Source of the DNA: a virus
Virus record (IMG/VR): IMGVR_UViG_3300036823_000117
Coordinates: 54,587-118,586 of that record
Reading direction: 5' to 3' (one strand)
Length of the DNA: 64,000 bases
The translations under genes and the position numbers were made by a program. Positions 28,249 to 40,818 of the stretch are shown here, in pieces (the first letter of the stretch is position 1; every line of letters starts with the position of its first letter). The notes below the pieces were generated by a model. It did not search any database. It saw nothing but the letters and a program-made list of their open reading frames with translations, and had not been told where the DNA came from.

Positions 28249-28293
28249 CTCGACCCTCCAGATGGAGGGGAGGGAAGACTTCAGCGTGACCGC

Positions 28294-28375
28294 GCCCGAC
28301 AACGAGTCGGACTAGGCGACATGCGCCTTAAGCGCACCTATAGCCAAGGAAGTAGCCCAATCCTGCACTTCGGGC
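28294..28375 (-). ncRNA. Y RNA-like element 1
   Basis: Terminal stem GCCCGA/UCGGGC, inner stem GGAUUGGGC/GCCUAGUCC; directly upstream of TROVE gene. Confidence 0.7.
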
Positions 28376-28399
28376 CCGACCATGCATGAAGTTTGATCC

Positions 28400-28469
28400 C
28401 CCCCGATAACGGAATGGCGGCGGCGAATTTCTTCTTGACAGGAAGTAGCCGTCACCTGCACTTCGGGAG
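28400..28469 (-). ncRNA. Y RNA-like element 2
   Basis: Shares CCCGAAGTGCAGG-N4-GGCTACTTCCT with element 1, with a changed 3' strand that largely preserves pairing. Confidence 0.7.
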
Positions 28470-28527
28470 AGGTGCTGACCGGAACGCTACACGACGTGAC
28501 GGGACCGGTCCACTGCATTACCGCCTG

Positions 28528-33882: not shown

Positions 33883-33913
33883 GGGTCTCGTCCTCGGCCG
33901 GCTAGGGCCATCG

Positions 33914-33988
<75 letters not shown>

Positions 33989-34038
33989 ATCAGAAGACTA
34001 CCGCACGTGACTGTCAGCCGGCTAGCTTCCTGGCCGGC

Positions 34039-34491
34039 TCAGCGTCCGTCACGGCGGGTGTACGTGATGTAGGCGTGAATGGTGCCGTTGCCCTCGAAGC
34101 TCACCGGGGAGATCTCCGCTGACGGCCAGCAGTTGCCCGCCCGCGACCATGCTTGCGGGATGAGCCGGGTGTAGGCCGGCCACGCTTTGAACTTGCCGCT
34201 CTCATCCGACGAGTTGCTGCCGTTGTTGCACAGGTCGTCCCAGTCGGCTTCGATGCGGCCGCGGCCTTCCCCAGGGATCGTGATCGTCCCCCAGGCGTGG
34301 ACGCGGATGCTGGCCGGGTCGCCGATCAGCTGGCCGCCGATGTTGCAGATCGGGTAGCCGCCTGTGGCGTGGCAGGCCCCGAGGTAGTGAACCTTCGCGG
34401 CCGCGGGAGTTGCGGCGTGCGCCGGGAAGGCGGCCACGGCAGCAAGGCCGAGGCCGCTTACTGCGGCTGCGGCCAGCCGGGTAAGGAACAT
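34039..34491 (-). CDS. secreted protein
   Basis: Signal peptide ending PAHA; four Cys. Confidence 0.65.
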   Translation of the reverse strand: MFLTRLAAAAVSGLGLAAVAAFPAHAATPAAAKVHYLGACHATGGYPICNIGGQLIGDPASIRVHAWGTITIPGEGRGRIEADWDDLCNNGSNSSDESGKFKAWPAYTRLIPQAWSRAGNCWPSAEISPVSFEGNGTIHAYITYTRRDGR

Positions 34492-34540
34492 GCTGGCCAC
34501 GGTATCGGCCACAACGGTTACTCCGCAGCGGGAAACGCAC

Positions 34541-34616
34541 TGGCTGCCCAGCCCGGACTCGAACCGGGGCACGCCCCTTAGGAGGAGGCAGCTCTATCCA
34601 CCTGAGCTACAGGGCA
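34541..34616 (-). tRNA. tRNA-Arg(CCT)
   Basis: Loop CT-CCT-AA; encoded CCA. Confidence 0.85.
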
Positions 34617-34617
34617 T

Positions 34618-34691
34618 TGGAGGCCGCGGCGGGAATCGGACCCGCGTGAGACGCTTTGCAGGCGCCCACCTAGCCGCTCGGTCACGCGACC
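34618..34691 (-). tRNA. tRNA-Cys(GCA)
   Basis: Loop CT-GCA-AA; T loop TCCGATT; encoded CCA. Confidence 0.85.
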
Positions 34692-34695
34692 CGGG

Positions 34696-34767
34696 TGCTC
34701 CCAACAGGAATCGAACCTGTGTTGCCAGCTTCGGAGGCTGGTGTCCTATCCCCTAGACGACAGGAGC
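34696..34767 (-). tRNA. tRNA-Arg(CCG)
   Basis: Loop CT-CCG-AA. Confidence 0.88.
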
Positions 34768-34833
34768 ATGATCATGGACAGGGACCTGGGCCCCGGCCCG
34801 GGTGTGTGTGCCCGGCTTACGCCCTGTCCTCCG

Positions 34834-34914
34834 TGCGCCGTGATGGATTCGAACCACCGTGTCCGTAGATCGCGGTTTACAGCCGCGCGCATTCGCCCAC
34901 TCTGCCAACGACGC
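34834..34914 (-). tRNA. tRNA-Tyr(GTA)
   Basis: Loop CT-GTA-AA; long variable region. Confidence 0.85.
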
Positions 34915-35003
34915 CTAGCCCGGAGTCTTTGAGTCCCGCCTGCTCGCGAACAGGCTCTCCGGATCACCCGTGCATGCTCGGGTGCTGGCCATGCCAGGGA
35001 ACA

Positions 35004-35077
35004 TGGGGAGGACAGCGGGAATCCAACCCGCGTGACCGGGTTCACAACCCGGCGCTCTAGCACTGAGCTATATCCTC
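35004..35077 (-). tRNA. tRNA-His(GTG)
   Basis: Loop TT-GTG-AA; C73; T loop TTGGATT; no encoded G-1. Confidence 0.82.
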
Positions 35078-35079
35078 AG

Positions 35080-35151
35080 TAGCCGCTGGAGGTACCGATC
35101 CTCCGGCCCCCGATGTGTGAGATCGGTGCTCCGCCATTGAGCTAAGCGGCC
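35080..35151 (-). tRNA. tRNA-Val(CAC)
   Basis: Loop CT-CAC-AC; atypical T loop ATCGGTA. Confidence 0.78.
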
Positions 35152-35152
35152 G

Positions 35153-35224
35153 TGCGCCCAGGAGGACTCGAACCTCCATTGCCGACTTCGTAGGCCGGCG
35201 TCCTATCCGTTGAACGATAGGCGC
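35153..35224 (-). tRNA. tRNA-Arg(ACG)
   Basis: Loop CT-ACG-AA. Confidence 0.88.
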
Positions 35225-35225
35225 T

Positions 35226-35300
35226 TGGTAGTCGCTCGAGGTGCTGACCCTCGGACCTTCCGCTAGTCGGGCGGATGCTCTGCCGCTGAGCTAAGCGACC
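35226..35300 (-). tRNA. tRNA-Val(GAC)
   Basis: Loop CC-GAC-TA; atypical T loop GTCAGCA; encoded CCA. Confidence 0.75.
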
Positions 35301-35377
35301 AGGTGGGCTGCCCCGGCAACTCGGACCGCACGTCTGCGTGTCCTGCTACCGAGGGCAGCCCTTTTCTTAGAGTTGAG

Positions 35378-35450
35378 CGAGACCGACGAGATTTGAACTC
35401 GCGCTGTCACCTTGACAGGGTGATGTGCTAACCGCTGACACTACGGCCCC
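35378..35450 (-). tRNA. tRNA-Asp(GTC)
   Basis: Loop CT-GTC-AA; G73. Confidence 0.88.
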
Positions 35451-35512
35451 ATTCCACCGGACTTGACGTTGCCCTGACCACCGTCAGGGTCGAGGCGCCG
35501 GCGTTGCCTTCG

Positions 35513-35583
35513 CTCCCCCACCTGGACTCGAACCAAGATCCACCGGTTAACGGCCGGCCGCTCTGCCCTTAAGCTATGAGGGA
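35513..35583 (-). tRNA. tRNA-Asn(GTT)
   Basis: Loop CC-GTT-AA; G73. Confidence 0.85.
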
Positions 35584-35738
35584 TTGGACCTGCGAAAATG
35601 TCAGACCGCATCCATATACTTAGCGGATGCAAGTCACCGAACTAGAATGCGGGCATTGCCAGAATCTCGTGGCGCTGGACAAGCGGTGCCATTGGGAGTT
35701 CGACCACGGCTACCTGCTCCTGGTCGATGGGCGCTTCG

Positions 35739-35811
35739 TCGCGGGGAAGGGACTCGAACCCTCGACCTGCGGGTTATGAGCCCGCCGCGCTACCAACTGC
35801 GCCACCCCGCA
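35739..35811 (-). tRNA. tRNA-Met(CAT), initiator-like
   Basis: Loop CT-CAT-AA; GGG/CCC anticodon stem. Confidence 0.88.
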
Positions 35812-35812
35812 G

Positions 35813-35883
35813 TAGCCCCACAGGGACTCGAACCCTGTCTCGCGGGTCGAAGGTCCGCGGTCCTACCCATAGACGATGGGGCC
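35813..35883 (-). tRNA. tRNA-Glu(TTC)
   Basis: Loop CC-TTC-GA. Confidence 0.82.
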
Positions 35884-35896
35884 TTGCTGTCCTGCG

Positions 35897-35967
35897 TACC
35901 CAGTAGGGGTGTCGAACCCCTGCTGCCGGGCTGAGAACCCGGCGGTCTGCCGTTAACCTAACTGGGC
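35897..35967 (-). tRNA. tRNA-Glu(CTC)
   Basis: Loop TT-CTC-AG. Confidence 0.85.
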
Positions 35968-35972
35968 TAGAG

Positions 35973-36045
35973 CGCGTCGACCAGGAATCGAACCCAGATC
36001 CACCGCTTAGAAGGCGGCCGTGCTTGTCCGTTGCACCACCGACGC
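35973..36045 (-). tRNA. tRNA-Arg(TCT)
   Basis: Loop CT-TCT-AA. Confidence 0.85.
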
Positions 36046-36046
36046 G

Positions 36047-36117
36047 TGCCTCGCCAAGGTACCGACCCCTGTTCCATCGGGTAAAAGCCGATTGCATCAC
36101 CTTAATGCTTGCGAGGC
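36047..36117 (-). tRNA. tRNA-Lys(TTT)
   Basis: Loop CT-TTT-AC; A8; atypical T loop GTCGGTA. Confidence 0.75.
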
Positions 36118-36118
36118 G

Positions 36119-36192
36119 TAGCCCACCAGGGGATTGAACCCTGCATCTCCTGCTTATAAGGCAGGCTCCGTCAACCAGGCGGATCGTGGGCG
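36119..36192 (-). tRNA. tRNA-Ile(TAT)
   Basis: Stem CCTGC/GCAGG, loop CT-TAT-AA. Confidence 0.78.
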
Positions 36193-36193
36193 T

Positions 36194-36270
36194 TGGTAGG
36201 TCACCAGAGAATCGGACTCTGCATCACCGCGTTATCAGCGCGGCCTCTCCAACCAGGCGAGACGTGACCA
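36194..36270 (-). tRNA. tRNA-Ile(GAT)
   Basis: Loop CT-GAT-AA; T loop TCCGATT; encoded CCA. Confidence 0.8.
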
Positions 36271-36271
36271 G

Positions 36272-36364
36272 CGGAAGTGGTGAGGGTCGAACTCACAAGG
36301 CGACTCGCGCCGCTCGGCTGTTTTCGGGACAGCTGCCGTCAGCCTCTCATCGGCTTGCACTTCC
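36272..36364 (-). tRNA. tRNA-Ser(CGA)
   Basis: Loop CC-CGA-AA; long variable arm; G73. Confidence 0.82.
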
Positions 36365-36368
36365 ATCG

Positions 36369-36453
36369 CGGAGGACGGACTATTCGAAAGCCACGTCTTG
36401 CGACGCGCATCCGCTAGCAACGGAGCCCGGCTCGCCTGTCCGGTTCATCCTCC
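36369..36453 (-). tRNA. tRNA-Ser(GCT)
   Basis: Loop TT-GCT-AG; long variable arm. Confidence 0.78.
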
Positions 36454-36454
36454 A

Positions 36455-36537
36455 TGGTGCGCTCGGAGGGATTCGAACCCTCATGCCCGTAGGCTCCGGG
36501 TCTGAGCCGGATGCGTCAGCCGTTGCGCCACGAGCGC
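36455..36537 (-). tRNA. tRNA-Leu(CAG)
   Basis: Loop CT-CAG-AC; variable arm; encoded CCA. Confidence 0.88.
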
Positions 36538-36540
36538 GTG

Positions 36541-36756
36541 ACGGGGAGTCCCTGGAGCGCAAGTACCGAGCCGTGCGGTGCCAGCCGACGGCATTTCATC
36601 GCTCTCCCTGACTGCGCCGGCCGCTGCACTGGCACTATCTCGCGGCCGTACGATCCGGGACTTGATCCCCGGGGCGCGTGCACGCGCCCGCTTGTCGCCG
36701 CACGTATTAGTTCCGGGGATTCCCTTCCGGTGACCCGGTACCGTGCGGCAGTAAAA
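36541..36756 (-). ncRNA. unknown ~215-nt structured RNA with two potential pseudoknots
   Basis: Stems GCCGCACG/CGUGCGGC and CGGCCGC/GCGGCCG; enclosed GUACCGGG and GUGCCAG complementary to distal CUCGGUAC and CUGGCAC. Confidence 0.55.
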
Positions 36757-36757
36757 C

Positions 36758-36831
36758 GGGGAGTGCTCTGCCTGGCTGAGCTACACCGGGCCTTGGCCCG
36801 GCGACCGGATTTGAACCGGCGACCTCTCCCC
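36758..36831 (-). ncRNA. circularly permuted, anticodon-less tRNA-like module A (YrlA-like)
   Basis: 5'-3' order: GGGAG, T arm (GGTTCAAATCC), closed acceptor hairpin, D arm (TAGCTCAG..GAGC), ACTCCC. Confidence 0.8.
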
Positions 36832-36833
36832 CG

Positions 36834-36905
36834 AGCGGAAGACGGGATTCGAACCCGCGACCCTTACCTTGGCAAGGTAATGCTCTACCGCTGAGCCACC
36901 TCCGC
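36834..36905 (-). tRNA. tRNA-Gly(GCC)
   Basis: Loop TT-GCC-AA; U73. Confidence 0.9.
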
Positions 36906-36986
36906 ATGAGCCGGGTTCCAATCTGATGCCTAGGGTTTCCCCAGTGGTATAGCGGCTACAGTCACCCGACAAACCTCTACCGTACG

Positions 36987-37059
36987 AGCCACCGTTCGGT
37001 TTCGAACCGAACACCTTCTGCCTACCATGCAGACGCTCTGCCAACTGAGCTACGGCGGC
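36987..37059 (-). tRNA. tRNA-Thr(GGT)
   Basis: Loop AT-GGT-AG. Confidence 0.85.
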
Positions 37060-37069
37060 GTGATTATCG

Positions 37070-37142
37070 CTGGCGGCCCAGGATTCGGACCTGGACTGGC
37101 GGGGCCAAAACCCGCAGGGCTGCCTGGTTACCCCAGCCGCCA
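37070..37142 (-). tRNA. tRNA-Gln(TTG)
   Basis: Loop TT-TTG-GC; U1-A72, G73; T loop TCCGAAT. Confidence 0.82.
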
Positions 37143-37147
37143 TCGTG

Positions 37148-37220
37148 AGCCCGCTAGAGGTCTCGAACCCCTCGCCTGCCCTTTACAGGAGGGCCGCTCT
37201 ACCAGCTGAGCTAAGCGGGC
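37148..37220 (-). tRNA. tRNA-Thr(TGT)
   Basis: Loop CC-TGT-AA. Confidence 0.85.
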
Positions 37221-37226
37221 AAGTCT

Positions 37227-37295
37227 CCCACCGGCCGCAGGACTCGAACCCTGCGTGTCTGCCGACGACGCCGGCCGTCGCTGCGTTACCGGTGG
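37227..37295 (-). ncRNA. tRNA-like RNA with anticodon arm reduced to a tetraloop hairpin
   Basis: Acceptor CCACCGG/CCGGTGG, D stem ACGC/GCGT, GTC-GGCA-GAC in place of the anticodon arm, T arm GCAGG-GTTCGAGT-CCTGC. Confidence 0.6.
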
Positions 37296-37299
37296 TTCG

Positions 37300-37373
37300 T
37301 GTCCACGGTGGGATTCGAACCCACACTGTCCAGCCCCTCATGCTGGCGCCTCCTGCCGTTGGGCTACGTAGAC
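37300..37373 (-). tRNA. tRNA-Leu(GAG), short variable loop
   Basis: Loop AT-GAG-GG; A73. Confidence 0.82.
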
Positions 37374-37482
37374 ATGGCGCGCGAGACAGGGCATGGACCC
37401 GTCAGCACGATAATGGCGCTTGCGCCTCCCCCATGCCGTCATGGGCGCTACGCCGCTGAGCCGCGAGTATCCCCGCAGCCAG

Positions 37483-37555
37483 AGCCTCCGACTGGCCTCG
37501 AACCAGTTGCCTTCCGCTTACGGGGCGGACGCTCTGCCAGGTGAGCTACAGAGGC
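37483..37555 (-). tRNA. tRNA-Thr(CGT)
   Basis: Loop CC-CGT-AA. Confidence 0.85.
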
Positions 37556-37698
37556 ATGGGAAGTTCTGGCCAGCCAAGGTCAACCCATCCGTCCCAGCCG
37601 GTCACGCCTGACAGCGTTGCCCCGGCCCAGACGTCGTACCACTCGGCATCCAGATCATCCATGACAGGGCCAGACGTCGCACCGCCTGGTCTTGTCCG

Positions 37699-37769
37699 CT
37701 GGGAACCCTGGATTCGAACCAGAACCGACGGAGCCAGAGTCCGCCGTGCTGCCGTTACACCAGCTCCCA
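37699..37769 (-). tRNA. tRNA-Gln(CTG)
   Basis: Loop CT-CTG-GC; U1-A72, G73. Confidence 0.88.
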
Positions 37770-37774
37770 TTGAG

Positions 37775-37849
37775 TACGGGCGGGGAGAGTCGAACTCCCA
37801 AGCAACCCGTTTTGAGCGGGCCAGGTCTGCCAGTTCCCGTCACGCCCGC
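37775..37849 (-). tRNA. tRNA-Leu(CAA), short variable loop
   Basis: Loop CT-CAA-AA; A73. Confidence 0.82.
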
Positions 37850-37854
37850 TCGAG

Positions 37855-37927
37855 TGCGTCGCCTCGGCCTCGAACCGAGAGCCCGCGGAGTAAGAGTCCG
37901 CTGCACGTCCACTTGTGCTTGCGACGC
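37855..37927 (-). tRNA. tRNA-Lys(CTT)
   Basis: Loop CT-CTT-AC; A8. Confidence 0.82.
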
Positions 37928-37931
37928 ATAG

Positions 37932-38002
37932 AGCTCCACCGGGGAATCGAACCCCGCTCGTCAGCTTGGAAGGCTGACACATCACCACAATGCTTGTGGA
38001 GC
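37932..38002 (-). tRNA. tRNA-Gly(TCC)
   Basis: Loop CT-TCC-AA; U73. Confidence 0.85.
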
Positions 38003-38003
38003 G

Positions 38004-38077
38004 TGGCGATGGACATCGGACTCGAACCGAGACTGCCCCACTTATGGAGGGGCGTGCTGCCAGTTACACTATCCATC
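38004..38077 (-). tRNA. tRNA of uncertain identity (anticodon CAT or ATA), possibly pseudo
   Basis: D and T arms and CCA present; anticodon arm GCCCC-TCCATAAGT-GGGGC is irregular. Confidence 0.55.
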
Positions 38078-38130
38078 TGACGCCGGGAGCGACCCGCCGT
38101 CCAGGAGCTGGCTGATCAGGCCGTGCTCCG

Positions 38131-38203
38131 TGCCTGCCGCTGGAATCGAACCAGCCACCCCCGCCTTTTCAGAGCGGTGCTCTACCGGATGAGCTAGACA
38201 GAC
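38131..38203 (-). tRNA. tRNA-Phe(GAA)
   Basis: Loop CT-GAA-AA. Confidence 0.88.
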
Positions 38204-38288
38204 TTATGCAGGGGTTCTCCGGCTTGCGCCTGCCCAGGAGGACCGCGGCCCGAAGTCCGCGCGCCCTACCCTGCTCCTGGTCTCCGAG

Positions 38289-38360
38289 TCGGGATACAAG
38301 GACTCGGACCTTGTCTGCCTGGTCCCAAACCAGGCGCGCTGACCCTTACGCGATATCCCG
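38289..38360 (-). tRNA. tRNA-Pro(TGG)
   Basis: Loop TT-TGG-GA; C1-G72, A73; T loop TCCGAGT. Confidence 0.85.
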
Positions 38361-38365
38361 TTCAC

Positions 38366-38442
38366 GGGGAGTGCTCTACCAGCTGAGCTACCGGACGCCC
38401 CTTGGGGCGCCCAGGCCGGACTTGAACCGGCGACCTCTCCCC
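38366..38442 (-). ncRNA. circularly permuted, anticodon-less tRNA-like module B (YrlA-like)
   Basis: GGGGAG-AGGTC-GCCGGTTCAAGTCCGGC-CTGGGCGCCCCAAGGGGCGTCCGG-TAGCTCAGCTGGTAGAGC-ACTCCCC. Confidence 0.8.
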
Positions 38443-38445
38443 TCG

Positions 38446-38518
38446 TGGAGCACCGGGGACTCGAACCCCGCACATCCTGCTTGCAAAACAGGTGCTCTAC
38501 CTGATGAGCTAGCGCCCC
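38446..38518 (-). tRNA. tRNA-Ala(TGC)
   Basis: Loop TT-TGC-AA; G3-U70. Confidence 0.9.
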
Positions 38519-38610
38519 ATTGCCCGGTCCCGGCCAGCCCGCGGCGTACCGCGAGCCGGCCAGGACCGGAGTCTTACTGCGCGGCCCTGGCTCGGCCGCG
38601 CTGCGTTTCC

Positions 38611-38631
38611 CGCTGTGGATTTGTCAATGCA
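38611..38631 (-). promoter_or_regulatory. boxA-like antitermination element
   Basis: TGCATTGACAAATCCACAGCG resembles, from memory, the actinobacterial rrn leader boxA region. Confidence 0.45.
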
Positions 38632-38662
38632 CAGACCCATTGCCCCGGAGGGTCGGGTACCG

Positions 38663-38733
38663 CTGGGCCAGAGGGATTCGGACCCCCATCGCCGGTTTTG
38701 GAGACCGGAGCTCTGCCGTTGAGCTATGTCCCA
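38663..38733 (-). tRNA. tRNA-Trp(CCA)
   Basis: Loop CT-CCA-AA; G73; T loop TCCGAAT. Confidence 0.85.
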
Positions 38734-38792: not shown

Positions 38793-38894
38793 CTACGTTG
38801 ACGCCTTGGTCCCGAACGTGTCCAGCAGCATGGCTCGCGAGCAGCTGGTGGCGGTGTGCCGCTGCTGCTCGTACCTGGGCTGGTTGCTGGTCAT
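38793..38894 (-). CDS. putative 33-aa leader peptide
   Basis: MTSNQPRYEQQRHTATSCSRAMLLDTFGTKAST; follows TTGCCG-18-TACAGT and precedes the terminator. Confidence 0.45.
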   Translation of the reverse strand: MTSNQPRYEQQRHTATSCSRAMLLDTFGTKAST

Positions 38895-39553
38895 GGATCC
38901 AACTGTACGCGAGGGGTCGGGCAGTCGGCAACTGCATTTTGGGTTGCGTCGAGGTCGGTGATGATTTTGCTGATTGTCTCGGCGGCGACGGGGCGGAGGT
39001 TCCAGGCGTCAAGACCGACGTGGACCATTTTTCCGCGCCATTGTGGTTCTCCGCGGAACGGGGTGAATGGCAGTGCGTCGACCTGGGCGCGCTCGGCTCC
39101 GTGGGTGTGGCCGTGGAGCAGCCATTTGCCTTCGTCGCGGAGCCGGTACTGGGTGTGGCGGTCTTCGTCGGAGTGGTCGCCGTAGTAGGGAAAGTGGGAC
39201 AAGAGGACTTCGGTGCCGTCGATTTTCCGGCGGGCGTACTGCTGGATAGACGCGAAGTACTGGAGCCACAGCCGCTGGGTTCTGTGCGCGTCCCTGTGGG
39301 CTGGCCAGGGGGCGTCGTGGTTGCCGGTGATGAGGTGGATGGTGCCGTTGAGCCGGGCGACCCAGGGGAGGATCTCGGCTGGTTTCCCGAGGCCTACGTC
39401 GCCGAGGTGCCAGACGGTGTCATCGCGGCCGACCGCGGCGTTCCAGTTGGCGACGATCGCCTCGTCATGGTCAGGGGCGGTGTCGAACCCGCGGAGCCTG
39501 CCGACCATGGCGTGGGTGAAATGGGTGTCGGAGGTGAAGAACTGGCCGCCCAT
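38891..39553 (-). CDS. calcineurin-like metallophosphoesterase
   Basis: SDTHF, HLGD, GNHD, LSHFPY and LHGHTH motifs. Confidence 0.9.
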   Translation of the reverse strand: MGGQFFTSDTHFTHAMVGRLRGFDTAPDHDEAIVANWNAAVGRDDTVWHLGDVGLGKPAEILPWVARLNGTIHLITGNHDAPWPAHRDAHRTQRLWLQYFASIQQYARRKIDGTEVLLSHFPYYGDHSDEDRHTQYRLRDEGKWLLHGHTHGAERAQVDALPFTPFRGEPQWRGKMVHVGLDAWNLRPVAAETISKIITDLDATQNAVADCPTPRVQLDP

Positions 39554-40818
39554 CACGCCGCCTTGAATCCGGGGATGTGGCGGGTGGCGAGGTCGTGGAT
39601 GGCGTCGGCGTGGTGGTCGTGGCGTTTGCAGGCTTCGACGATCTCGGCGGGCGCGATCCCGGAAATGCCGCGGATCTTCAGGTCGTCGTGTCCGTAGTAG
39701 CGGGATATGAGGCGGGAGGCTTGTTCTTCGGTGGCGGGGCCGAAGTGCTCGCGGAGGTCGATGCGGCCGTCTCGGGCGACGGCGTCGTCGAGGACGCCGG
39801 GGTTGTTGGTTGTCATGACGGTGAGGAGGCCGTGGGGTGTGGCGATGCCGTCGAGGGCGTTGAGGAGGCCGGAGAGGGTGAGGCCGCCGTGGTTGTCGTC
39901 GCGGCTGGTTGCGGCTGAGAAGACGTCTACGTCTTCGAGGAGGAGCATGGAGCGGGGGCCGATGCGGGAGATGTGGCGGAGGAGGTCGCCGTCTTTTTTC
40001 ACGTCGGCGAGGGGCATGTACCAGACGTCGAGGCCGAAGTGGGACGCGATGGCGCGGGCCACTGAAGTTTTGCCGGTGCCCGGGTCGCCTTCGTAGAGGT
40101 GGCCGCGGTGCCACGGGATGCACCTGCGGAGGTAGTCCTGTTCGGCGTCGAGCCACCGCTGGACGTCGGTGACGAGGCGGTGCAGCTGCCCGTCGGGGAG
40201 GATGACGGAGTCGAGGGTGCGCGGGGGGAGGTCGTCGCAGCGCTGCCAGTCGTCCCACTGGCCGAGCATCCGGAATGCGGGCTTGGTGCGTTCCCGGTGG
40301 GTGCGCTCGAGGACGCCGGCGATCTGGGTGAGGAGGGCGCGGCGGGCGGTGACGGACCGGGCGGTGAAGATGATCTCCGGTGGCTTCCACCTTTGGCCGG
40401 CGGTCTCGTCGCCGCCTTCGGATACGACGACCTTGATTTTGTGGCCGGCGACTCGGATGTCCTGCTCGCGGGTGCCGTCGTAGCGGAGGCGCAGCTCGGG
40501 GGGCTTGGCGGGTTCGTCGTCTTCGGGCATGGCGAAGTGGCGGCGGGTGGACCAGGCGACAAGGGCGTGCTGTTCCCTGGGTGGGAGGAGGCTGAGGACC
40601 CAGGTGTGGAGCTCGTCGTAGATGGCGTCGTTGCCGGAGACCTTGACGGTGTAGGTGGTCCGGCTGCGGGCCTGGCGGCGGAGGTGGTCGGCGAGGGGCC
40701 ATGCGGCCTGGCCGGCGGCGAAGGCGAGCGCGGTCCGGGGGGCGTGTTCCTGGAGGGCGGCGATCAGGTCCGACGCGGACCGGGCCCGGATCGGGCTGGC
40801 CGGGACTTCGTGGGTCAA
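39553..40818 (-). CDS. BCS1-like AAA+ ATPase
   Basis: GDPGTGKT Walker A, LLEDVD Walker B, LSGLLNALDG, RDGRID. Confidence 0.9.
   Translation of the reverse strand: MTHEVPASPIRARSASDLIAALQEHAPRTALAFAAGQAAWPLADHLRRQARSRTTYTVKVSGNDAIYDELHTWVLSLLPPREQHALVAWSTRRHFAMPEDDEPAKPPELRLRYDGTREQDIRVAGHKIKVVVSEGGDETAGQRWKPPEIIFTARSVTARRALLTQIAGVLERTHRERTKPAFRMLGQWDDWQRCDDLPPRTLDSVILPDGQLHRLVTDVQRWLDAEQDYLRRCIPWHRGHLYEGDPGTGKTSVARAIASHFGLDVWYMPLADVKKDGDLLRHISRIGPRSMLLLEDVDVFSAATSRDDNHGGLTLSGLLNALDGIATPHGLLTVMTTNNPGVLDDAVARDGRIDLREHFGPATEEQASRLISRYYGHDDLKIRGISGIAPAEIVEACKRHDHHADAIHDLATRHIPGFKAA

Follow-up and report, generated by a model that had tools for sequence, protein, structure and literature searches.

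Y RNAs tether Ro60, or its orthologue Rsr, to other proteins by means of two joined modules. Here we describe a 215-nucleotide (nt) stretch on the minus strand of a soil phage genome (IMG/VR record IMGVR_UViG_3300036823_000117), which follows a tRNA mimic of the Y RNA kind inside an array of tRNA genes and may be a structured spacer RNA processed from the tRNA precursor. The record comprises 118,586 bases, is estimated to be 97% complete and has a GC content of ~65-72%. The window, that is, the whole 64,000-nt stretch of DNA that was analyzed, covers bases 54587-118586 of the record, and positions below are those of the window unless another record is named.

YrlA (RF02553), which occurs in bacteria and phages, is a Y RNA that carries a tRNA-like domain, and nearly all of its best matches are reported to be located within 4 kb of rsr (Chen et al., 2014, PMC4201824). 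The phage encodes Rsr, and two modules of its tRNA array, on the same strand as rsr, share with YrlA a T arm, an acceptor-like hairpin, a D arm and a closing helix with covarying pairs; in related phages, homologues of these modules are found just upstream of rsr. However, the modules differ from YrlA in carrying no long Rsr-binding stem, in scoring below the gathering threshold and in being located inside the tRNA array, ~8.5 and ~10 kb from rsr instead of within ~4 kb. The 215 nt themselves match no family.

In the tRNA cluster of phage T4, two stable non-tRNA RNAs, species I and species II, are cut from the tRNA precursor (PMC2330249). As non-tRNA RNAs among phage tRNA genes, they are the nearest analogy to, and a precedent for, the putative RNA of the stretch; the T4 RNAs have no Rsr or Y RNA context, and the comparison was made by description, not by sequence. 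We know of no function for the species I and II RNAs.

Theta ribozymes, which resemble the ribozyme of hepatitis delta virus (HDV), have been proposed to process phage tRNAs and have a nested double pseudoknot as their hallmark (PMC10879173). The stretch resembles them in that it is a predicted structured RNA of a phage and immediately follows a unit shaped like a tRNA. Theta ribozymes are minimal, have no P4 and occur within 5 nt of a tRNA (PMC10879173), whereas here neither an HDV-like arrangement nor an Rfam ribozyme match was found.

The module directly upstream of the stretch, called module A below, recalls a further group of genes. In two-piece (permuted) transfer-messenger RNA (tmRNA) genes, and in the permuted tRNA genes of red algae and archaea, the 3' half is encoded before the 5' half. 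Module A also has the 3' half of the tRNA shape before the 5' half, but its acceptor strands are joined by a loop of 4-6 nt and its anticodon-stem side is open, which is the YrlA arrangement. The initial annotation regarded it as a permuted tRNA module next to the stretch; it is instead a YrlA-type tRNA-like domain and belongs to a known kind of RNA. ARAGORN covers permuted tmRNA forms and detected no tmRNA, permuted or otherwise, even at relaxed thresholds, where the stretch gave only low-scoring and mutually inconsistent calls. With default settings it found no tRNA or tmRNA in the 215 nt, and Rfam had no tRNA or tmRNA match inside 36541-36755; nor did any tmRNA family of Rfam match module A.

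A candidate spacer RNA of the tRNA operon

ARAGORN identified 34 tRNA genes within 33913-38733, all on the minus strand, and Rfam confirmed 27 of them at the gathering score. The stretch (36541-36755) sits in a 295-nt gap between tRNA-Gly(GCC) and tRNA-Leu(CAG). Since the tRNAs and all strings quoted in the initial annotation are on the minus strand, the minus strand is the RNA to consider. A promoter scan for sigma-70-type sites gave no site in the array, and no terminator-like site was found within 36541-36756. A 27-codon reading frame starting with the AUG at 36599 runs into tRNA-Leu and was judged spurious.

We propose that the 215 nt may represent a structured, processed spacer RNA that is co-transcribed with the tRNA operon of the phage and is a diverged, Y-RNA-like sister of its tRNA mimics, and we put the probability of this reading at roughly 45%. 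The stretch would be transcribed on the minus strand within a polycistronic precursor of the 34 tRNAs. Following established tRNA processing, 3' trimming of tRNA-Gly would set the 5' end at ~36832, and an RNase P cut at the 5' end of tRNA-Leu (36538/36537) would leave a spacer 3' end of ...ACUCCCCGUCAC. The product would be a 295-nt RNA made of the tRNA mimic and three hairpins, unless it is cut again, and the 215 nt could be either freed alone or joined to the mimic. The long hairpin at its 3' end (domain 3) would be a diverged sister unit of the array mimics, a stable RNA of Y-RNA-like character in which a long hairpin has taken over the body, and this unit would travel with module A and tRNA-Leu as one cassette. 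A role together with Rsr or PNPase is speculation.

Three features led us to take the long hairpin as a diverged sister: a GGGGA/UCCCC closing helix and a ACUCCCCGU tail, which are common to the mimics, and a weak collinear likeness. The sequence ACUCCCCGU occurs at the end of module A (36764-36756), at the end of the stretch 215 nt downstream (36549-36541) and at the end of the second module, copy 2 (38372-38364). The repetition of the module A 3' end at the 3' end of the stretch, which had been noticed in the initial annotation, is thus real. In the predicted folds the first copy pairs with the GGGGAG at the 5' end of module A and the second with an internal GGGGA of the stretch. After removal of the 9-mer, collinear alignments to the two modules scored above most shuffles: 27 of 400 reached the score for mod1, and for mod2 the numbers were 14 of 400 when domain 3 was aligned and 6 of 400 when all 215 nt were used.

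In a bolder version of this proposal, which we regard as unlikely, all of the stretch or no less than its final 150 nt, comprising the palindrome and the long hairpin that ends in ACUCCCCGU, would be a new stable RNA gene of phage tRNA operons that works with free-standing mimics. The Y RNA would then be split: its Rsr-binding stems would lie by rsr and its mimics in the array, and the RNA discussed here would act as a third partner or serve as a self-processing element that sets the 3' end of the mimic. Should the 215-nt tail prove functional, it would add a new partner to a Ro/Y-RNA system and a further unexplained stable RNA to phage tRNA clusters.

Table 1. Positions of the RNA elements and genes discussed in the text
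Feature	Position in window	Strand	Basis and remarks
tRNA-Gly(GCC)	36833..36905	-	ARAGORN; Rfam tRNA 70 bits; 3' end abuts tRNA-like module directly
Module A, YrlA-type tRNA-like domain	36756..36832	-	Rfam YrlA, own model R1, family alignment
Linker UUUAC, unpaired	36751..36755	-	Minimum free energy (MFE) fold; with 36750 the most variable spot among near-identical soil relatives
Hairpin 1	36696..36750	-	MFE fold; 9-bp stem UGCCGCACG/CGUGCGGCG, i.e. stem A plus a U-G pair; p = 0.97 for stem A
Hairpin 2, 18-nt perfect palindrome GGGCGCGUGCACGCGCCC	36672..36689	-	p = 0.99; single occurrence in genome
Domain 3, 130-nt long irregular hairpin	36542..36671	-	MFE and centroid folds
Second copy of ACUCCCCGU	36541..36549	-	3' strand of domain 3 base; followed by CAC and tRNA-Leu
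tRNA-Leu(CAG)	36455..36537	-	ARAGORN; Rfam tRNA 52.7 bits
Stem A, GCCGCACG / CGUGCGGC	36749-36742 / 36704-36697	-	String present
a/a', GUACCGGG / CUCGGUAC	36741-36734 / 36570-36563	-	String present; one G-U
Stem B, CGGCCGC / GCGGCCG	36648-36642 / 36624-36618	-	String present
b/b', GUGCCAG / CUGGCAC	36635-36629 / 36584-36578	-	String present
T-arm-like CCGGG-GAUCAAGU-CCCGG	36672-36655	-	String present
Copy 2 of tRNA-like module	38364..38444	-	Rfam YrlA 37.7 bits; between tRNA-Ala and tRNA-Pro
rsr (Ro60 orthologue, TROVE domain), 573 aa	26581..28302	-	Pfam TROVE 50.5-50.7 bits, cut-off 23
Two Y-RNA-like stems directly upstream of rsr	28285..28480	-	Y1 ~28470-28400, Y2 ~28385-28295; both without tRNA-like domain

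tRNA mimics of the YrlA type

Module A consists of a closing helix (GGGGAG/CUCCCC), a T arm, a loop-closed acceptor-like hairpin and a D arm, and ends with ACUCCCCGU. The Rfam YrlA model matches it at 36761-36828 with 30.9 bits over model positions 23-85 of 114, which correspond to the tRNA-like domain only; this score and that of copy 2 are both under the YrlA gathering score of 69. Copy 2 shares 80% identity with module A in an 80-nt alignment and has a longer acceptor-like hairpin. It ends in ACUCCCCGU-GAA, so that the next tRNA follows at once, 3 nt after ACUCCCCGU, and it has no counterpart of the 215-nt stretch. By eye, taking the stretch and one copy of the repeat out of the gap leaves module A, CAC and tRNA-Leu, which resembles the arrangement at copy 2.

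A profile made from the two modules was compared with 79 related IMG/VR loci fetched with the Rsr protein and gave 52 matches at E ≤ 0.01, nearly all of them on the strand of rsr and 40-150 nt upstream of it. A family alignment was built from 45 distinct sequences of these loci and the two modules (47 sequences). Its consensus contains the closing helix, the T arm, the acceptor-like hairpin and the D arm (UAGCUCA...GAGC), and compensatory changes were found at 13 of the 19 consensus pairs, the pairs of the closing helix showing 16-23 double changes each among the 47 sequences. The T-arm columns G, G, T, C, A, T, C and C are invariant in the alignment, and the T-arm loop described for YrlA (GGUUCRAnUCC) is present in module A as GCCGG-UUCAAAU-CCGGU. 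A covariance model, R1, was calculated from the alignment; it scores module A with 69.2 bits and copy 2 with 74.4 bits, both sequences being part of the model, and tRNA-tRNA junctions of the array with 40 bits and below.

The long Rsr-binding stem of YrlA is absent from module A because the 5' side of the module touches tRNA-Gly, and the conserved flank motifs of 46 relatives were not found beside it. Judged from these alignments, module A is a domain that descends from, and would work like, the tRNA-like domain of YrlA, but it is not a full YrlA.

rsr and the Y RNAs beside it

Relatives of Rsr were detected in 100 IMG/VR stretches, with a best identity of 72%. The two Y-RNA-like stems directly upstream of rsr, Y1 and Y2, can be aligned with the sequence upstream of rsr in each of the two closest phages (L010:9745-10000 and L063:9225-9485). 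Y1, a Y-like stem without a tRNA-like domain, is conserved in all three phages. The second stem of L010 and L063 carries a tRNA-like domain of ~75 nt, in place of which the phage described here has an unrelated hairpin of ~35 nt, and R1 found no match in 28285-28480. The Rsr-type stem of this rsr-adjacent Y RNA is kept (CCCGAAGUGCAGG ... CCGACUCGUUGUCGGG). In the closest Rsr phages (72 and 60% protein identity), YrlA is adjacent to rsr, and a tRNA array is absent (0 tRNAs in G001-G003).

From this comparison, the phage seems to have Rsr-binding stems without a mimic beside rsr, and mimics without a stem in the tRNA array. The joined modules of a Y RNA thus seem to have been taken apart, and the mimics placed among tRNAs, where tRNA-processing enzymes would release them. 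No such split arrangement was described in the papers surveyed on Y RNAs with phages or tRNA arrays, as judged by titles and abstract openings; the supplementary phage YrlA lists of PMC4201824 may record array copies.

Predicted fold of the stretch

The minus strand of the 215 nt has a minimum free energy of -107.2 kcal/mol (z = -3.1), and none of 300 shuffles was as low; the z-score of the plus strand is -2.4. The initial annotation had taken the stretch for a structured RNA, and it is indeed predicted to be well structured. The favoured fold probably comprises three nested hairpins. The stem of hairpin 1 encloses CCGGG/CCCGG and a small apical stem, hairpin 2 is formed by the palindrome, and domain 3 has a base made of CGGGGA/UCCCCG (p = 0.81) and GUCCC/GGGAC (p = 1.00), followed by GGA/UCC and CGUA/UGCG. 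The segments T-like, B, b, b' and a' of Table 1 are located in domain 3, where they are engaged in other pairings. In Y RNAs in general, the two ends pair in a long stem that carries the Ro-binding motif. A long end-to-end stem is predicted for domain 3 (p = 0.81-1.00); the likeness of the 215 nt to Y1 and Y2 was not above that of shuffles.

Relatives in soil metagenomes

Close relatives of the phage were found in public soil metagenome runs, one with 0.99 of the sampled words, which may be the source, and eight, from two other studies, with 0.32-0.42. Four of these runs were compared over 36100-37100 (1001 nt). X4 record 17 and X5 record 26, which come from two further soil studies, span the 392 nt of 36440-36831 and show 7 letter changes and 2 gaps there. 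In X2 record 5, which spans 36514-36784, there are 3 changes and 1 gap. X3 record 9 spans 36440-36749 and has 2 changes, and the adjoining 165 nt (36275-36439) are replaced by 328 other letters. A contig of the tRNA-Ile region, X4 record 16, differs in 18 letters and 2 gaps within 161 nt. Among the differences listed, those inside the stretch are at 36719, which is unpaired in the MFE fold, at 36750, 36753 and 36754, and one base inserted after 36750; there are 41 differences over the 1001 nt beyond those listed. The change U>C at 36750 turns the U-G pair at the foot of hairpin 1 into C-G.

One more divergent contig, X4 record 18 (~90% identity over tRNA-Leu), keeps 36677-36642 and 36557-36450 and skips the apical 84 nt (36558-36641), with 21 other letters in place of 36678-36842. 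By eye, the base of domain 3 is kept on both sides of the helix, as is the palindrome hairpin in a shorter form, and module A, hairpin 1 and the segments a, a', b and b' are missing at that place. This contig is the only comparative hint, and it appears to favour the nested long hairpin; the contigs are not assignable to one genome.

Searches for homologues

The initial annotation could not place the 215 nt in a described RNA family, and the Rfam search agrees with this. Nothing matched on either strand at the gathering score, at E ≤ 10 (751 nt searched) or at E ≤ 5 (the 5.1-kb array), E-values being multiplied by 4227 families, so that matches under ~15 bits would be missed. At these thresholds the Rfam intron families gave no match to the 215 nt. 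A group I intron would have a P3-P7 pseudoknot core and flanking exons that give a functional RNA once rejoined; the removal described above would leave flanks resembling those at copy 2, but the order of the helices is not that of a group I core.

In sequence collections, which may leave out records very near the window, the 215 nt proved to be an orphan without homologues beyond near-identical soil strains. A blastn search of INPHARED phages with a 551-nt stretch and with the 215 nt returned tRNA matches only, plus one chance match of 33 nt, and PLSDB plasmids gave no match to the stretch. Nothing was found for the 215 nt in the 79 Rsr-phage loci by blastn and nhmmer; the best match in the whole records of five close Rsr phages had E = 0.009 over 17 nt, and the genome itself holds no second copy. 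Exact or gapped patterns had no matches in IMG/VR, except in one search with two loci, both by chance. An 18-mer was found at 79 loci of JGI metagenomes, none extending beyond 42 nt, and the four that reach 42 nt are in apparent coding sequence without tRNAs. A 20-mer had one chance locus in GTDB genomes. Pairing of the 295-nt RNA with Y1 or Y2 was not favoured, as 173 of 200 shuffles were at least as stable in what is a crude test for long RNAs. Canonical Rsr-binding motifs of YrlA, which by eye seemed to be present on either strand of the stretch, failed a 46-sequence nhmmer profile, motif counts against the genome background and shuffled alignments.

Evidence for and against the proposed spacer RNA

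Several observations weigh against the proposal that the stretch is a processed sister of the mimics. The 9-mer ACTCCCCGT occurs 10 times in the 118.6-kb genome, five times per strand, compared with ~1.5 copies expected from base composition (record C1 positions 28991, 30040, 38138, 38438, 39053/39075 and 42755; window positions 36541, 36756 and 38364), and at C1:39052-39084 two of the copies make up a perfect inverted repeat with arms of 12 nt. Because of this excess, the sharing of ACUCCCCGU is weaker evidence of kinship than it looks. R1 gives 36594-36685 a score of 6.7 bits, compared with a non-tRNA background of up to 10.5-11.3 bits, and when the 215 nt were aligned locally with module A, copy 2, Y1 and Y2, the scores did not exceed those of shuffles. 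Kinship of the stretch with the tRNA mimic is therefore weak. Among 36 random 215-nt windows of the genome (mean z -0.61, standard deviation 1.34), two had a z-score of -3.1 or lower, which places the stretch in roughly the best-folding 6% of the genome and is suggestive and no more. The soil contigs cannot be shown to share one genome, and recent common descent or exchange, instead of selection, could account for the 98% identity that the cassette shows between strains. None of the sequencing runs listed with the stretch is on record as RNA.

Many of the same observations would be expected of a neutral leftover, that is, decayed array material such as a pseudo-module and a pseudo-tRNA that arose by tandem duplication or illegitimate recombination and are carried between useful genes. 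We consider this explanation possible, if doubtful. It would account for the lack of homologues beyond near-identical strains, for helices at the frequency expected by chance (see below), for a z-score matched by two of the 36 random windows, for the weak collinear likeness to a module with the same 9-nt end and for the fact that copy 2 manages without such a stretch. The rsr-adjacent Y RNA has lost a domain in this phage, indicating that its RNA genes get remodelled. Decay fits less well with a spacer that is near-invariant where neighbouring parts of the array are replaced or ~11% diverged, with listed variants that avoid paired positions or keep the pairing, and with a divergent contig that keeps both strands of one stem while skipping the apical part. 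If the stretch is decayed, the locus would still show shuffling of Y RNA modules in phages.

A signal acting at the level of DNA is improbable. The palindrome and three copies of CCGCACGG, two direct and one inverted (36748-36741, 36578-36571, and the complement within 36704-36697), could be sites for protein binding or recombination, marking a cassette boundary or regulating the array. This would suit an 18-bp perfect palindrome that is unique in the genome and a mosaic array in which replaced segments stand beside a conserved block. However, the genome contains 13 copies of CCGCACGG or its complement, which is therefore not specific to this place, the sigma-70-type scan gave no promoter-like site, and the replaced segments start at 36439 and beyond 36831, not at the palindrome. 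A miniature inverted-repeat transposable element with a 9-bp target duplication was rejected by eye, as terminal inverted repeats are absent and the divergent contig has the 3' repeat without a preceding module A.

The initial annotation viewed the stretch as a catalytic or switching RNA with two pseudoknots, in which stem A is combined with a/a' and stem B with b/b'. Such an RNA might generate the 3' end of the mimic by self-cleavage, as theta ribozymes are proposed to do for phage tRNAs. The complementary segments do exist, and the order of stem A, segment a directly after it and a' far downstream is the crossing order of P1 and P2 in HDV-like ribozymes. In gut phages, self-cleaving ribozymes of this type are located no more than 5 nt from tRNAs (PMC10879173). 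As sequence the observation is real, but statistically it is not special. The 215 nt contain six helices that are 7 bp or longer and include no more than one G-U pair, compared with a mean of 5.6 in dinucleotide shuffles, 481 of 1000 of which reach six; a/a' is not among the six because its maximal run has two G-U pairs, a rule that was applied to the shuffles as well. Helices of at least 8 bp number three, compared with 1.7 in shuffles, and 256 of 1000 shuffles reach three.

The proposed pseudoknots and the T-arm-like hairpin would also have to compete with the more stable nested fold. Stem A has a probability of 0.97 in the nested ensemble, compared with 0.000 for the T-arm-like stem, 0.001 for stem B and 0.005 for b/b'; that of a/a' is 0 by construction, since ViennaRNA cannot score pseudoknots. 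Forcing stem A, the T-like stem and stem B costs only 7.1 kcal/mol over the MFE before the pseudoknot helices are counted, so that energy alone does not exclude the pseudoknots. An HDV-like nested double pseudoknot, in which P1 and P2 cross, a P3 hairpin abuts the 3' strand of P1 and J4/2 holds a catalytic C, does not fit the stretch: a generic descriptor (P1 of 6-8 bp, a P3 hairpin no more than 2 nt away from the 3' side of P1, and a P2 of 5 bp or more that crosses P1) found no candidate on either strand, where one third of the shuffles gave at least one, and the Rfam HDV families had no match at E ≤ 10, nor did any other Rfam ribozyme family. Inspection by eye gave a spacing of 8 nt between the 3' strand of stem A and any P3, and of only 4 nt between the 3' strand of stem B and segment b; no linker connects stem A to segment a for an 8-bp second stem. 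The partners a, a', b and b' are not kept in X4 record 18. A catalytic or switching role of the 215 nt appears unsupported by these models, and the pseudoknotted RNA has, in our estimate, a very slim chance of being correct. The remaining probability is reserved for explanations that we have not thought of.

Other features of the array

Two tRNA-like genes with long variable arms at 36271-36454 (minus strand) were missed by ARAGORN with default settings and called as tRNA-Ser(GCU) and tRNA-Ser(CGA) with relaxed ones; the Rfam tRNA-Sec model scores 26.8 bits on 36273-36364. The array has gaps of 60-155 nt without a called tRNA, for example 35584-35737, 37556-37697 and 38519-38661, and R1 matches from T arm to D arm span some of its gaps, for example 35681-35776 with 25.4 bits. 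This suggests that the gaps may hold further unrecognized tRNA-like genes.

A protein of 603 aa is encoded just upstream of the array (38891-40702, minus strand) and contains a calcineurin-like phosphoesterase domain at residues 389-542 (Metallophos_2, 39.5 bits). It had no relative in IMG/VR by pattern search and may, as a guess, be an RNA-end-healing enzyme. Unusual anticodons appear in the ARAGORN calls at 36194-36270, 36118-36192 and 38004-38077 (minus strand), namely TAT in tRNA-Ile and ATA in tRNA-Tyr, and the tRNA-Tyr scores only 26.6 bits with the Rfam tRNA model.

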